From a virus (lineage: Duplodnaviria; Heunggongvirae; Uroviricota; Caudoviricetes), in IMG/VR virus record IMGVR_UViG_2695420485_000017: a stretch of 38,866 nucleotides of DNA, one strand, 5' to 3'. The translations under genes were made by a program, and so were the position numbers. The notes beneath the pieces are model-generated. The model had not been told where the DNA came from. It searched no databases and saw only the letters and a program-made list of their open reading frames with translations. This document shows, piece by piece, positions 2,007-8,697 of the stretch (positions are counted from its first letter, which is position 1; the number at the start of each line of letters is the position of its first letter).

Positions 2007-3464
2007 TTAAACAACAATTTTAAGGAAGTTTGAAGCATCCTTATAAATGGTGCCCGCGGGGGCGCCGTTTATCTCCTCAAGCGTTTTTACGTTCTTCAAA
2101 ACCACCTTGCCATCTTCCAGAAATTCAATGCATGGTGCGTCGTTGTTCATGTTTATTTTCAACGAACCAACAGCACTACCTCCGTTTCCGCTTATCCATT
2201 CAAGTGACGCAATAGGAAGTGCATTGCCGTTGTGATCTGTCCCTTGTAGCAAGATCATTCCAGTTCCTACCCCTGGTATTCTGATAGCTGCGCGACCACC
2301 ATCCTCTAAAACTACTTCCAAAATTTCTTTAGGATATTTTGTGTGCACCCCTACACGCGTCAGCGAACCACCACCAGGGACGACGGCAATACCTGGAATA
2401 AGCGATTCTGCAAAAAGCATCACTGAGTCTTTATGTGGATTGATTGCTGGCTTATCGTCATTAGTGCCGCTCCCTATCGCAATCGAACCACCATAAGCCT
2501 GAATATTCTTACCTACAGCAAAAGAGCCATCTCCTGCCGCGCGAGTTCGATATCCAATGGCCGCCGCACCAATGCCATCACTTGCAACCCCGCCGGGGTC
2601 TGTAGTGTATCCCGGTCTGGCTTGCGTAAAATAACCTGTTGTAAAAGCCGCCCTTGAAAGCGCTTCCGTTTCTTCACAGAATGCGGCAGATTTTGCGCCA
2701 AGAGCAATGACATTTTTCCCAAATGCAAAAGAGCAGTACCCTTCAGCATTTGGTGAGGTAATTTGATCTGGGTCGCCAGTAGCAGAACCAGCACCACCGG
2801 CAATAGATGCCACGCCATACGTAACGCAGTCATGCCCGAAAGTTGTGGTGTATACCGCGAATGACGCACCGTTTCTGTTAAAAGATACGGAGTAGTCGCC
2901 AATCATGGCTGGGTTTCCCCATGAGTTTTTTGATGGAAGCCCTCGCCAGTAGTTCTTCTCGTCATCTAGCGGCTCAAGATCAGAGCCACCAACTCTAAGA
3001 GATCCTTTTCCCTTATCAAATAACCACATCACCCCCTGAGTCAGTGATGATCCAGTTGGTCTTCCGTAGTTTACCTTCTGCCCGATCAGCTTCATTCCAT
3101 CGTCCTGAGCCAGCTCATTTCTCAGGGTGTTTGGATTATATTTAAGCACGTCAGAAAAATAGTGCTGCCGTACTCCTTGAGCATCATAAACAGCCATAGA
3201 ATGGCCTTGCACAGTTACGAACTTGGCAATCTGTCCGTTATATACCGGATATCCAGCAGCGTTAATGATGATTGGTTGAGAAACAGGAACGTGAGATCCA
3301 TCTTCGTTCTCCACATAAACCTGAATCTGGTTTTCAGGATTTACCGGGTCAGTGTCAATTTTACCGATATAAATTTTTCCATTGGCTACGGCTTTAAAAG
3401 AACGAGCCATAGTGAAGAGTTGCGAAGGCATCGATACGATCACATTGGCTGTAATGTCTGTCAT
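2007..3464 (-). CDS. Tailspike/tail fiber with P22 gp9-like head-binding N-domain and unrelated Gly-rich C-terminal domain
   Basis: First ~110 aa (MTDITANV...[13 protein letters not shown]...) resemble P22 tailspike N-terminus; ATG with GGAG RBS; last gene of late module. Confidence 0.85.
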
Positions 3465-3564: not shown

Positions 3565-4500
3565 TCAGTAGTTATGTACTGAAGGAGGCAATTCTTTATT
3601 CTTAAGTCTCATCCATGCGGAAAGATTCGTTGGTCCGTCTGGCTCATTAATATCAACATCTCGTGTGTGGTTTATTAAAACGTCTCTCGCCATTCCGATA
3701 ACATACGAGAATTCATGACCGTAGTCGTAGCATCTGCCGGAATAGTTCGATTGAATTTGTTTTAGCGCCGGATACAGTTCGCGGAATAATGCCTGTGAGC
3801 GGTTGGCATAATCCCATAACCATACAAGGCTGTTTGCTTCTTTTGCAGAAAGCTCGTTTGCTTTCTTCTCTTGTTTGCCGATTAACTCGCCTTCAAGCGG
3901 AACGCGAGCTGCAAGTGACAGAGCTTCGGTAAACTGCTCATCGCTGATTTCTTTGTATGAACACCCAAAATGAGATTTCAGCGACGACCACATGGTAATC
4001 ATTGCCTTCGCCTGTTTTTCTTTTGGCAGAGACTGACCGCGACTCATGACGAGTTGTTTAATGGCTTCCTGCTGTTCAGTGGTGATTTTACCCGGCAACG
4101 CCTTTTTAGCTTTGCGTGGGTTAACTACATGGCCTTTAGTCCAGTAGTCATGCAGCACGCTAAAGCATTCCTCCTGGTACTGAATCAGTTTATCGCGGAT
4201 GTCAGCTCGAACTTTCTCAGGGTTGATGCTGAACAGCCATCCATTTAACTTCTTCAAAGGAAGGCAGAGTAGCTTACGAAGCTTCCCATCAGCGGCAACC
4301 ATATTCATATGAATACAGTTGAACTTATCTAGTTGTTTCATAAGTTTTTGTTGCTGAGTACCCCAACTCATTCCAAGGTTTTCAACGATTGGCTTCATCG
4401 CAACGTATGCAACTCCGGCAGCCATGGCGGTGATAATTTGCTGACCGTTGAATGGTACGTAAGAGGTGTTCACTGCTTCTAAAATTGCTATACTATTCAT
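3565..4500 (-). CDS. ant: Antirepressor Ant (P22 immI)
   Basis: Follows arc in operon with Oarc/Omnt; N-terminus [10 protein letters not shown]... starting at ATG 4500 (ORF track extends upstream via TTG). Confidence 0.8.
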
Positions 4501-4502
4501 GT

Positions 4503-4570
4503 TGGTTTTTCTCCACGGATTTACTGACAACCGAAGCCCTGACTGTTCCCGCAGTTGGGGCTTCAACTTT
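4503..4570 (+). ncRNA. sar: Candidate sar-like antisense RNA covering ant RBS/start
   Basis: Plus-strand -10 TACTAT (4491-4496) inside ant 5' end; hairpin GAAGCCC...GGGCTTC at 4532-4562; arrangement as described for P22 sar. Confidence 0.35.
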
Positions 4571-4730
4571 ACGCGCCAATGCGCCCTTCCTTCTTAAAGC
4601 TTTCCATTACTCTCTGATAAATCTCAGAGTTAACAGACCGACCATTCTCTTCCGCCACCTTGCGTACCAAATCCAATACTTCTTTAGGCCACCGCAAATT
4701 GAACTGCGGCATTTTGCTCATTCCTTTCAT
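4569..4730 (-). CDS. arc: Arc repressor
   Basis: 53-aa product [53 protein letters not shown], near-identical to recalled P22 Arc. Confidence 0.9.
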
Positions 4731-4820: not shown

Positions 4821-5072
4821 ATGGCTAGAGATGATCCGCACTTTAACTTCCGTATGCCTATGGAAGTAAGGGAGAAATTAAAATTCAGGGCGGAGGCGAA
4901 TGGGAGATCAATGAACTCCGAGTTGTTACAAATCGTCCAAGATGCTCTATCAAAACCATCGCCTGTGACTGGATATCGTGACGATGCAGAACGACTCGCT
5001 GATGAGCAGTCAGATCTTGTTAAGAAGATGGTGTTTGATACGCTGAAGGATTTGTACAAAAAAACCACCTGA
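4821..5072 (+). CDS. mnt: Mnt repressor
   Basis: 83-aa product MARDDPHFNFRMPMEVREKLKFRAEANGRS... matching recalled P22 Mnt; RBS GGAG upstream. Confidence 0.9.
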   Translation: MARDDPHFNFRMPMEVREKLKFRAEANGRSMNSELLQIVQDALSKPSPVTGYRDDAERLADEQSDLVKKMVFDTLKDLYKKTT

Positions 5073-5171
5073 CGGTGAGTTAATTTTTGCATTTACCTGG
5101 GCCATATTGACTAATTATAAAATGAGATCAATATTTAATCGCCCAATAACTGGTGTATGTTGAGGTATATC

Positions 5172-5351
5172 ATGGCGAAAAAACCAGGTGAAAACACAGG
5201 AAAAAACGGCGGAATATACCAAGAAGTTGGCCCACGCGGCGGTAAGAAAGACAATTTTGCCACCGTCAAGGACAACGAAAGGCTTCCACCAACAACAAAG
5301 CCAGGTCATGGCTGGGTATTGGATAAGCGAACTCCAGACAGCAAAAAGTAA
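5172..5351 (+). CDS. Small YjzC-like protein, function unknown
   Basis: ATG with GAGGT RBS; own candidate promoter (TTGACT) upstream and terminator downstream; sequence MAKKPGENTGKNGGIYQEVG...GHGWVL. Confidence 0.6.
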   Translation: MAKKPGENTGKNGGIYQEVGPRGGKKDNFATVKDNERLPPTTKPGHGWVLDKRTPDSKK

Positions 5352-5357
5352 TAATCA

Positions 5358-5380
5358 AGCCGGGTCACTCCGGCTTTTTG
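5358..5380 (+). terminator. Hairpin terminator between convergent accessory genes
   Basis: AGCCGG-gtcact-CCGGCT followed by TTTTT; stop codon of the minus-strand HExxH gene sits in the loop. Confidence 0.5.
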
Positions 5381-5730
5381 ATATGTCGCTCGCAGAACTC
5401 AACAAGCCTGCTCATTAAGTAGCAGTAAGTCTCGTTGGCTCTTCCTGGTTCAACATCAACACCTACCCTTGAGCAGATATCGAATGCCATGTGAGCGCAC
5501 TCATGGGCAATAGTAGATAGTTTGCCATTGAACACGCCTATCACATGCAAAACACCATTCTCGCTACTCATTGTATGAGACGCTCCGTTGGCGTCCGAGT
5601 CATGCACGTCAACGCCAAGTTTTTGATGCAGGCGTTGCCATTCTGGAAAGTCTCTACAAAACACAATTGTACCGCTCTCAAAGAGCGGTACTAGCATCTT
5701 TGGTACGTTTCCAATGTTAACTTTTTTCAT
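5365..5730 (-). CDS. Hypothetical protein with HExxH motif (putative zinc metallopeptidase-like)
   Basis: 121-aa ORF with ATG start and motif IAHECAHMAF; no transmembrane segment apparent; family not assignable from sequence alone. Confidence 0.55.
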   Translation of the reverse strand: MKKVNIGNVPKMLVPLFESGTIVFCRDFPEWQRLHQKLGVDVHDSDANGASHTMSSENGVLHVIGVFNGKLSTIAHECAHMAFDICSRVGVDVEPGRANETYCYLMSRLVEFCERHIKKPE

Positions 5731-5764
5731 GGTATCCTGCGCAAAACTAAGGAGAGTTAATTAT

Positions 5765-6250
5765 ATGAAAAAATCACTGTTAATTATCCCGCTTCTGCTG
5801 GCTGGGTGCGCAAAAGTAAGCGACTATCAGGCAAGTTGCGAGCAACGCTATCCAAAGCTTAGTGATATGGCTAATTGCCTTGATGCCAGCGTGAAGAACG
5901 ACTCACGCATGGCATCAGCACCAACACCTAAGCTGTATGTCCTTGCTGCGAAGATGCTCGGGCAAGGTGTCGATCAAGGCAAGATAAGTGACGCACAGGC
6001 AAGACTTGAGCTTCAGAATCTTTATGTTCAATTACAAAGCCAAGAACAAGCCCAACAAATAGCACAAAGCCAAGCATTCCAGCAGGCTTTATTGAATTAT
6101 CAGGCTGTAAACACAATGCAAGCGATCGAGCAAAAAGCGCGCCAGCCTGTTATAACTCAACCTTACCCAACACGCGTTGACACATATACAAACTGCAATT
6201 CAGGATTTGGAAACACCGTCACATGCAACAGTAGCAGCAACATTAGATAA
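5765..6250 (+). CDS. Predicted lipoprotein (candidate superinfection-exclusion or envelope accessory protein)
   Basis: Strong RBS AAGGAGAG; signal peptide MKKSLLIIPLLLAGC with lipobox LAG-C; Gln-rich middle region. Confidence 0.65.
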   Translation: MKKSLLIIPLLLAGCAKVSDYQASCEQRYPKLSDMANCLDASVKNDSRMASAPTPKLYVLAAKMLGQGVDQGKISDAQARLELQNLYVQLQSQEQAQQIAQSQAFQQALLNYQAVNTMQAIEQKARQPVITQPYPTRVDTYTNCNSGFGNTVTCNSSSNIR

Positions 6251-6337
6251 AGCTATTCATTCATACCGCTTAACGAGGCGACAATACCAGCTCTCGACAA
6301 GCGATTGAATTCATCGCTACCAATAGCATCGCGTGTT

Positions 6338-6415
6338 GCAGACCAACAATCTGATATGGTTAAGAAAATTGTCTTTGATACGCTCAAAGAGCTATATAAA
6401 AAAGACAGCAGCTAA
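6338..6415 (+). pseudogene. Remnant of an mnt-like 3' end
   Basis: Translates ADQQSDMVKKIVFDTLKELYKKDSS-stop, clearly related to the Mnt C-terminus (ADEQSDLVKKMVFDTLKDLYKKTT); no upstream start. Confidence 0.45.
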
Positions 6416-6432: not shown

Positions 6433-8697
6433 TTACTTCTGGTTATCATCACTGTTCATCCAGTACATGATGCCTAGCCTTGATATGGTTTTCTTATCTG
6501 ATTCTGGAAGTGAGTTGTAAAACGAGCGCCAAGCAGAAGAGCGTCTTACAGTTGTATCAACGATGCTTTCTGGTGCTTGTTTTACTGCCAGCCTTGCTGC
6601 TTTCTGGAATTCTGGTGAGCTAATTAGCTTTTCTGCAGATTCCATTGATGCAGCGCCGCCCATCGCCCTGATTTTGCTGGCGACTTTTGCCCCAATTTCT
6701 GACCCAGCAACAGCACCTACTGCACTGAACGGTCCTGACACAGTTGAACCAACCGCAGTGCCAATGCGTTGGGCATGGTTAGCAACAAATTCATTTGCCG
6801 CAGTGACGCGATTAAACCGTTTGACGAACTCGTTTAGTCTTCCTGTAGTTATCTCGTAAGATTTTGCATCTTTGATAGCCTTTGCGACCTTATATACATC
6901 GTTCAGACCTGACATAGTCTCTTTTGGTAAATGTCGGGCAAGATTGCGCATCTGCCCGTTTGCTAACATGTTTTGATACCAGTCAGCAAACCCTGCAGGA
7001 TTAAAATCAGCGCCACGTTTTCCGTTCGAAAGCATATCCCGAAGACCTGTTCCCAGTAGCTCGGTTCTTAGCTTCCTGGACGGCGTGTTTTGCATCAATT
7101 CACGAAATCCTTTGGCATCGCCTTTCGACATTGCCTGTAGTGCTGTAGTTGCTTTGCGAGAAACATCACCGTTCAGCGTTCTGCCAGTTAGATTAATCAT
7201 TTGCTCTTCCATGCTTTTTCGCATCTGAACAAGCCTCTGAGCAACTTCAAAATCACGTAATGCATTTGTCTCTGACAGCGCCGCCTTTTGATCATCGGCG
7301 AGCGAACCGTAAAGCCTCGATAAAGCAGCGCGATCAGCATCTTTATATGGTCCAGAATTCTTATGAAGTGCATCACCAACAAGTCGTCGTTGCTTATTGA
7401 GATTTGCATAAGTTAATGCGCCGTTCTTGCCTGGATTAACTGCCCGAAAGACTCTCTTTTCAATAGGGTCAAGGTTTTTCATCCCGCCAAGATCTTCTGC
7501 CACCTGTTTGAGCATTGACCTTGTTGATGGCGCATCAATTTTTGCACCTGCAGGCATCGCCTTTTCAACATTGCGATAAAGCTGGTCGCTTCGTTTCATC
7601 AGCGCAGACATTCTTCCATTGATCGTATCAATAAACTTGTCGCTCATACCAAGAGCATCTTTTGCACCGGAAACGCGATCAATTATCTCCCCCGCGCCCT
7701 GTGCTAGTTGCCTGATTGCTTCATTTTCCTGCACCCGTAGAGCAGAACCCGCACGGGACTTGATTGCTTGCTCAACTGCCTTGTATTGCTCGTTCCCGGA
7801 AAAATGTGAAGGGAGTAATGAATCAACATTAAGCCTTTCAGCAGACTCCAGAACTTCAGCCTGAGGATTGATATCTAGTTCATCAAGCGATGAAGCGAGA
7901 TTTGGCCTTTTTTGTGCTGCTACTGTGCGGACGACCTCCTCTGGGTCCCTCGTCGCAGGCGTCATTGGTACACCTTGTGCTGCTCTTGCCTCTGCGGCAT
8001 GAACCGCAGGATTTGTTGCTGCAGCGGCATCACCGGAGAATGGTGATGTTTCTGTTGGCGCAGTACCGGAGAATGGTGATGTTTCTGTTGGCGCAGTGGT
8101 CGCTCTCTGTGCAGATGTTTTATTGCCACTAATTATATTTGATGCACCACGAACACCACGGGTAACGCCATTTATCAGGCCATGCGTAGCAATGTTAAGT
8201 CCGGCATTAATAGCGGCATTTTCGGCAAAATCACCCCGTTGATTCGCCGCGTCAGCGAGAGAACCAATGACCATGTTTCCAGCTACTCCTGCTCCAGGAA
8301 CAAGATAACCGCCTATTGACTCTCCAGCTTGAGCGTAGGGGTCTGTCGGTCTGTCTACTGGGCGATAAACATCATCCAAAACCTTGGGGCCACCAAGCCC
8401 CTGGCTGATTGCATTAATCAGACTTGCGCCACCCTGCAATACGTCAAATGGTATGTTTACCAGACCACGACCAGCCTGCTCTGCAATTTGCCCTGCACTT
8501 TGACCACCTGTGAGCCAATCGCCAGCTTGTTGCATCAATGATGGTTCTTCACGTGCTGGTTCATTATTGGCCTGATTAACTGTTTGTTGCTGAACAGCCT
8601 GACCAGCAAAATACTCATCAATGGCGGTGCCAATATCTTCCGTGCTCGTACCATCAGGGAAGGTAAATGTCTTACCGTTTGCAGTTACTTTCATCAT
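6433..8697 (-). CDS. Ejection/DNA-transfer protein, P22 gp16-like
   Basis: 754-aa ORF in gp7-gp20-gp16 order; start overlaps gp20 stop (GAATGATGA); Gly/Ala-rich. Confidence 0.75.
8053..8118. repeat. Tandem 33-bp in-frame duplication inside gp16-like gene
   Basis: ccggagaatggtgatgtttctgttggcgcagt(a/g) repeated twice, encoding [11 protein letters not shown] twice. Confidence 0.7.

Follow-up and report, generated by a model that had tools for sequence, protein, structure and literature searches.

Gluzincins (clan MA(E)) are recognised by a conserved HExxH motif carried on a helix and by a third ligand, a glutamate, on the next helix, 18 to 25 or more residues downstream. In thermolysin (MEROPS family M4) the arrangement is H142/E143/H146/E166, with an 'NEA' context. 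Enzymes of the thermolysin type (M4, M3, M9) comprise several hundred amino acids. Much smaller zincins have been described, such as the minigluzincins proabylysin, projannalysin and selecase of about 110 residues and the zincin 3e11 of 114 residues. The SprT-like, Wss1 and Spartan proteins (PF10263), whose third ligand is a histidine, are likewise small zincins with a patchy occurrence in phages, and those of jumbo phages were proposed to target host proteins (Iyer et al., 2021, PMC7824862). ImmA/IrrE (M78, COG2856), another group of HExxH proteins on mobile elements, sit beside their cognate HTH repressor.

The gene hkcC of phages HK620 and P22 was recorded without known function (PMC2629481), and it has had neither a function nor a family assignment since 2001, although P22 is among the best-studied phages. 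The window analysed here, the whole stretch of 38,866 nucleotides (IMG/VR record IMGVR_UViG_2695420485_000017), is by its sequence a P22-like (Lederbergvirus-type) phage or prophage. In this study, sequence comparison and a predicted structure led us to assign its hkcC to a large, phage-restricted and undescribed family of apparently gluzincin-like proteins of about 120 residues.

The hkcC locus

The features needed for the comparison are as follows (positions are those of the window).

2007-3464, minus strand: tailspike gene with the P22 N-terminal domain
3565-4566, minus strand: ant
near ant and mnt, minus strand: arc
4821-5072, plus strand: mnt
5065-5078, minus strand: second terminator-like hairpin with a T7 run in the hkcC direction, at the mnt 3' end
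5172-5351, plus strand: orf59a, 59 aa, YjzC-like, 3' of mnt ('HkcD' in HK620)
5357-5376, no strand assigned: GC-rich hairpin AAGCCGG-n6-CCGGCTT, overlapping the last four hkcC codons
5365-5730, minus strand: hkcC coding sequence, ATG start, 121 aa, PHROG 1365 member
5419-5436, minus strand: codons N99-E100-T-Y-C103-Y104, at the start of predicted helix 100-116
5491-5505, minus strand: HECAH codons (H76-E77-C78-A79-H80), on predicted helix 71-88
5700-5730, plus strand: equivalent of the P22 sieA promoter, facing outward, inside the first ~10 hkcC codons
5735-5738, minus strand: AGGA Shine-Dalgarno-like motif read from the sequence, 4 nt 5' of the ATG
5765-6250, plus strand: lipoprotein gene
6433-8697, minus strand: gene-16-type ejection protein gene

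The sequence-only reading had pointed out a 121-residue ORF on the minus strand at 5365-5730 with one HExxH motif, HECAH at residues 76-80. This ORF is present and, judged by identity, it is hkcC of HK620 and P22, a gene already known and named. The HK620 HkcC and the unannotated P22 ORF are each 99.2% identical to the window protein, and the DNA at 5100-5758 is 97.6-97.7% identical to P22, SE1, ST160 and other Salmonella phages. The neighbours in HK620 and P22 match those of the window as well, with the gene 16 side, orf59a and the bidirectional terminator. The flanks differ from P22 in that the window has a lipoprotein gene (phrog_6067) where P22 has sieA, and also carries a further mnt 3' end, which is truncated. 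The P22 reference records contain the hkcC ORF without annotating it, and the P22 RNA-seq paper gives no gene-level value for it. The same DNA was found as prophage DNA in 446 of 5,426 complete E. coli genomes, where the annotation is hypothetical throughout. Even if the activity of HkcC were mundane or undetectable, the assignment would improve the annotation of about 8% of complete E. coli genomes and of most P22-like phages.

Two results show that hkcC is not a chance ORF: the family has 546 representatives (E<=1e-3), and the 80 near-identical loci show a synonymous excess, with 26 synonymous-variant codons against 3 nonsynonymous sites. This pattern indicates purifying selection on the gene. 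The AGGA motif is a plausible ribosome-binding site. A search of the window for a second hkcC copy found none. HkcC has no hydrophobic segment (maximal Kyte-Doolittle 19-residue mean 1.07) and is therefore soluble, as had been claimed; its computed GRAVY is -0.16 and its computed pI 6.4.

Family and conserved signature

Scans of HkcC against Pfam, NCBIfam and PADLOC returned no family and just chance lantibiotic-like matches on 'HECAH'. In contrast to these scans, HkcC matched phrog_1365 (E=1.7e-39; residues 1-121 aligned to profile positions 3-120 of 127), and all 117 tested relatives matched it too. PHROG 1365 carries no assigned function; a literature search on 'phrog_1365' gave no paper, and one on 'hkcC' gave unrelated acronyms. 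The word-indexed search retrieved 32 HkcC relatives, while at E<=1e-3 the exhaustive profile search retrieved 546, each representing a cluster at 50% identity; almost all have 100-190 aa.

The family alignment comprised 117 diverse members with identities to the window protein down to 23%. Only four columns, H76, E77, H80 and E100, are invariant in all 117. G49 and Y104 (113/117) are nearly invariant, C103 (95/117, 81%) and N99 (86/117, 74%) are common, and C25, C78 and C86 are also kept in the close relatives of HkcC. Because H76, E77 and H80 are invariant in these 117 homologues, the objection that the sequence-only reading had raised against itself, an HExxH motif not conserved in homologues, does not hold. 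E100 lies 20 residues past H80, which gives the pattern HExxH-x19-E, and it is the presumed third zinc ligand. Both the spacing of H80 and E100 and the 'NE' context are those of H146/E166 and 'NEA' in thermolysin. In such an enzyme, H76, H80 and E100 would bind zinc and E77 would serve as general base; Y104, which shares a face of the predicted helix with C103, would probably help to stabilise the reaction intermediate. Across at least 546 clusters at 50% identity, from temperate and virulent phages, the family thus keeps a thermolysin-like catalytic tetrad and nothing else.

Several longer members of 173-189 aa (P0063, P0067, P0116, P0133, P0150) have Lys/Glu-rich C-terminal tails with basic ends, two of which finish alike (VPRIARYKRG and VPRVMSFKRW). 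These tails may be docking or nucleic-acid-binding segments; HkcC itself lacks such a tail. In an Arsenophonus MAG (L016, 4001-4308) the hkcC homologue is interrupted by an in-frame stop codon, which probably makes it a pseudogene.

Predicted fold and comparison with known metallopeptidases

An AlphaFold2 model of HkcC was built from an 18-sequence alignment and reached a pLDDT of 89 and a pTM of 0.83. Its elements are strands 11-13 and 21-25, helix 28-37, strands 49-56 and 59-66, and helices 71-88 and 100-116. The HExxH motif lies on helix 71-88 and E100 opens helix 100-116. The structure prediction thereby gives the order of a minimal zincin, that is, a sheet, a backing helix, an active-site helix and a 'glutamate helix'. 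Similarity to solved zincins was weak. Foldseek of the model against the PDB gave no significant match, nor did a PDB sequence search with the close alignment give any, while the deep profile gave weak matches at E 0.016-1.3. Among these, myroilysin, BMP1 and an M35 peptidase (E 0.016-0.5) aligned over the HExxH helix and the preceding strands. In BFVD, 26 matches were found at E<=1e-3 with TM up to 0.83; nearly all of them are uncharacterised phage proteins (N4-like, T7-like, jumbo and crAss-like), and a few are labelled SprT-like or Metalloprotease. The suggestion that this protein could be a minimal zinc metallopeptidase is supported by two results, the invariance of H76, E77, H80 and E100 in 117 members and the predicted zincin order of elements, with a weak likeness to solved zincins.

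The HkcC family agrees with the gluzincins in its helix-borne HExxH motif, conserved in 117/117 members, and E100 fits the position of their third ligand. However, HkcC differs from the thermolysin-type enzymes in its length, in the lack of a significant sequence or Foldseek match and in having no signal peptide or pro-domain; the minigluzincins and 3e11 are its neighbours in size. It was likewise different from the SprT/Wss1/Spartan group. Two of the 117 members match Pfam SprT-like at E~1e-4, but HkcC itself does not, and the family profile aligned with E. coli SprT at an hhalign probability of 4.6%, so SprT family membership was rejected on this value. Moreover, the family has the invariant Glu and no third conserved His, and it lacks a zinc ribbon, whereas E. 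coli SprT shows Zn_ribbon_SprT. Given the weak SprT alignment and the Glu in place of His, we treat HkcC as a separate, undescribed family within the zincins.

Like ImmA/IrrE, HkcC is an HExxH protein encoded on a mobile element, and its gene lies near a repressor gene. However, Peptidase_M78 was not matched by HkcC at E<=1 nor by any of the 117 members at E<=0.01, and hkcC adjoins orf59a and a lipoprotein or sieA gene instead of a cognate HTH repressor gene. Neither of the two peptidase families that the sequence-only reading named for a profile search, M78/ImmA and SprT-like, was recovered for HkcC itself.

Distribution and genomic context

Homologues of hkcC are almost phage-only in the sequences searched: just 8 of 72,556 plasmid records match the family, and several of these are phage-sized. 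To map the mosaic boundaries, but not diversity, we used 80 IMG/VR loci whose HkcC is at least 99% identical; the scan of genomes gave 11 loci. In 61 of the 80 loci the similarity to the window stops about 25 bp 5' of the hkcC ATG, and in 10 of the 80 it stops on the other side of hkcC, at the hairpin. The mobile unit therefore consists of the gene and its terminator. The 5' neighbour of hkcC varies; it can be sieA, hkcB, the lipoprotein gene of the window (18 of 80 loci) or gene 16 directly.

Other members of the family occupy different positions. Those of temperate phages belong to the late operon, and many are placed between lysis and terminase genes. The orf129-type lineage, 38-39% identical to HkcC, is found in ST64T, L, ST104 and epsilon34, flanked by the Rz lysis gene on one side and by the small terminase gene on the other; both types are found together in SE1, ST160 and UAB_Phi20. 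In mEp044 and L020 the homologue is 3' of the lysis genes and 5' of the terminase genes, and in L025 and L026 it is directly 5' of the large terminase gene. In L021-L023 it belongs to a ParB_N-ParB_N-ATPase cluster 5' of terminase, and in L022 it comes right after a Tad2-like gene. Virulent N4-like phages (KP8, Bp4, U1G, phCDa and Pectobacterium Possum) are carriers too. Their homologues belong to a group of small rightward genes that begins next to the terminase genes, and we infer from the genome organisation of N4 that this group would be the early region.

Convergent arrangement with orf59a

The small YjzC-like gene convergent with hkcC and the hairpin between them are as described in the sequence-only reading, and 13 nt separate the two stop codons. 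The product of orf59a matched Pfam YjzC (PF14168) at E=0.0013 and 19.4 bits, below the 25-bit cut-off; for its tblastn relative in Clostridium phage phiCT9441A, NCBI uses the name 'YjzC family protein'. The hairpin at 5357-5376 carries the annotation t_mnt in P22-pbi, and HK620 lists it as 'bidirectional terminator tORF59A'. In the orf59a direction it has a T5 run, in the hkcC direction only a weak T tract. Proteus (L009) and Pasteurellaceae (L010) also have the hairpin, but with other stem bases, and the Proteus hairpin shows the same asymmetry of T tracts as the window. The hairpin at 5065-5078 is located at the position of 'tMNT' in HK620. The T-tract asymmetry and this second hairpin indicate that the hairpin at 5357-5376 chiefly ends the mnt-orf59a transcript. 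Between mnt and orf59a, a sigma-70-like site (5107-5135, plus strand; TTGACT-17-AATATT, 9/12 matches) was observed, so orf59a may have its own promoter besides Pmnt.

The shared hairpin had been taken as a sign that the two genes are regulated together. This is not supported. The genes are on opposite strands and therefore belong to different transcripts, in P22 the orf59a gene comes after mnt and ends at t_mnt while hkcC points in the late-operon direction, and 10 of the 80 hkcC loci have no orf59a. The other 70 loci do have it; the 10 have a 74-aa membrane ORF instead. An obligate toxin-antitoxin-like pairing with orf59a is ruled out by the same 10 loci. It seems that the cargo of the slot convergent with hkcC can be exchanged and is expressed in the lysogen. 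The 74-aa predicted membrane protein (MISAILSVLLASLF...) is encoded 3' of an mnt-like gene (L032, L034, L072, L076 at 4380-4604, minus strand).

Expression of hkcC

The orientation of hkcC is that of genes 16, ant and 9, which is the late-operon direction. The late transcript of P22 must traverse the hkcC region to reach gene 9. A simple sigma-70 scan found no promoter on the hkcC strand between gene 16 and hkcC, and the module that moves contains none either. From the orientation and the known path of the P22 late transcript we infer that hkcC is expressed late, and it would be read by read-through from gene 16 in lytic growth. The sieA promoter equivalent at 5700-5730, which was mapped from the P22-pbi annotation via the 97.6% DNA match and was not picked up by the sigma-70 scan, would serve the lipoprotein gene.

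Possible role of HkcC

Our preferred reading, to which we give a probability of roughly 0.5, is that HkcC would be a minimal cytoplasmic gluzincin-type metallopeptidase, accessory in lytic growth, that cuts a specific host protein. We consider the enzymatic part quite likely; the part concerning a host target is more tentative, and we hold it at somewhat under even odds. The gene would be a non-essential accessory gene in a compact mosaic module of gene and terminator, and its product would cut one host protein, possibly of an immune or stress pathway, in favour of phage multiplication. Its presence in virulent N4-like phages argues that the function serves lytic growth. Iyer et al. (2021) came to a like conclusion on the patchily distributed SprT-like metallopeptidases of jumbo phages. 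The word effector, which had been offered for this protein, may apply if it is taken broadly, for any protein with an action on the host.

A role in the lysogen is the main rival, given the genomic neighbourhood. In this reading HkcC would be, like Lit of e14, a defence or exclusion protease that the prophage expresses in the lysogen, and it would cleave a protein of the host or of an incoming phage and so abort or block superinfection. The hkcC gene does lie in the 'ant moron', which is rich in prophage-expressed genes (sieA, mnt/orf59a), its divergent neighbour in the window encodes a lipoprotein with a faint Cor-like match, and the module is resident as prophage DNA in the 446 E. coli genomes. 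However, PADLOC-DB, which includes Lit-type proteases, was matched at E<=1 by neither HkcC nor Orf59a nor the lipoprotein. Virulent N4-like phages, moreover, have no lysogen to protect. The late-operon orientation of a module without its own promoter and the paralogues within late operons, in the lysis-terminase interval, also speak for lytic growth, and we therefore regard a defence role as unlikely. Much the same weight is given to a two-gene module in which the YjzC-like Orf59a would be an inhibitor, cofactor or substrate of HkcC and the shared terminator would balance both, a reading that we find rather improbable. The convergent pair recurs in Xenorhabdus, Proteus and one Pasteurellaceae genome with its hairpin, at 46-63% HkcC identity and in other prophage surroundings, and this recurrence exceeds our chance expectation; the 70 of 80 loci with orf59a point in the same direction. 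But hkcC is unchanged in the loci where the membrane ORF replaces orf59a, all examined orf129-type paralogues and distant members lack this neighbour, and YjzC-like genes are found alone in Gram-positive phages. That both genes are inherited together can follow from their common terminator and from how small the module is.

Three further activities were considered for HkcC. A SprT/Wss1-like protease associated with DNA would clear DNA-bound or cross-linked proteins, for example near replication or packaging. The two members with a SprT-like match, the BFVD neighbours of that name, the basic-ended tails of several longer members and the frequent position near terminase genes would suit such an activity, while HkcC itself has neither the SprT-like match nor the basic tail (its pI is 6.4), its family has Glu as third residue and no zinc ribbon, and the alignment with E. 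coli SprT is poor, which makes this quite unlikely for HkcC. A processing protease for a phage protein of ejection or the head, instead of a host target, is very unlikely in our opinion. It would agree with the place of hkcC beside ejection gene 16, with the place of homologues near terminase, portal and head genes, and with the probably late expression. However, the gene is accessory, since closely related P22-like phages carry hkcC, the orf129 type or both. In phage L just 836 bp separate genes 16 and 9, and P22/L hybrids are viable (PMC10883804). In N4-like phages, the location is a cluster of small non-structural genes. An ImmA/IrrE-like protease, which would switch immunity by cleaving one of the repressors Mnt, Arc or C2 of the phage, was suggested by the sequence-only reading, and the distance of less than 300 bp between hkcC and mnt of the immI region would be in its favour. 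It is nonetheless effectively excluded, with a probability that we consider minimal: besides the missing M78 match and the missing adjacent HTH gene, HK620, which keeps mere remnants of mnt and ant, has an intact hkcC of 99% identity, homologues occur in virulent phages without repressors, paralogues lie far from any immunity region, and the neighbours on both sides are freely swapped while hkcC is constant.

If the target of the proposed host-directed protease is considered further, the HkcC family might be phage-specific counter-defence gluzincins that cut a host immune sensor or effector in the lytic cycle. We put this forward as a speculative extension that is probably not correct in full. 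P22-like and lambdoid phages would make such proteins late, N4-like phages from their small-gene cluster on the terminase side, and the target could be, for example, a sensor or effector that responds to late proteins (terminase, portal or capsid, for instance). If this were true, hkcC and the orf129 type, which are 38% identical and paired in one genome, would have different targets. Proteolytic counter-defence by phages is little documented, and our search of the literature on phage anti-defence metalloproteases found no characterised relative of HkcC. A minimal protease of 13.6 kDa would also be a useful object for structure and engineering.

Other features of the window

Within hkcC codons 14-21 (VPLFESGT), two perfect inverted arms of 10 bp enclose a loop of 3 nt, GTACCGCTCT-TTG-AGAGCGGTAC (5669-5691), just upstream of the sieA promoter equivalent. 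The homologues of Xenorhabdus and Proteus code for the same VPLFESG peptide without this repeat, so that it could be due to chance or be a lineage-specific operator. By our estimate about 0.2 such palindromes are expected by chance per window, and with this and its absence from Xenorhabdus and Proteus it was set aside as a regulatory element.

The lipoprotein gene encodes 161 aa with a signal peptide ending in LAGC and, besides the Cor-like match, a faint spanin-like one. In the slot of P22 sieA, it is a candidate superinfection-exclusion gene. The truncated mnt 3' end at 6305-6415 (plus strand) lies between this gene and gene 16. Over its last ~26 codons it matches Mnt, with 71% identity at the aligned positions. 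It marks an old recombination joint, and the lipoprotein gene was probably acquired from a phage that had it 3' of mnt.

In the gene-16-type gene, a perfect 33-bp tandem duplication was observed at 8032-8097, and the 11-residue peptide that it encodes occurs twice in the 754-aa product. The tailspike of 485 aa (2007-3464, minus strand) has a P22-like head-binding N-terminus, 70-77% identical to P22 and HK620 over ~120-140 residues, and the remainder is unrelated, which suggests a different O-antigen specificity.
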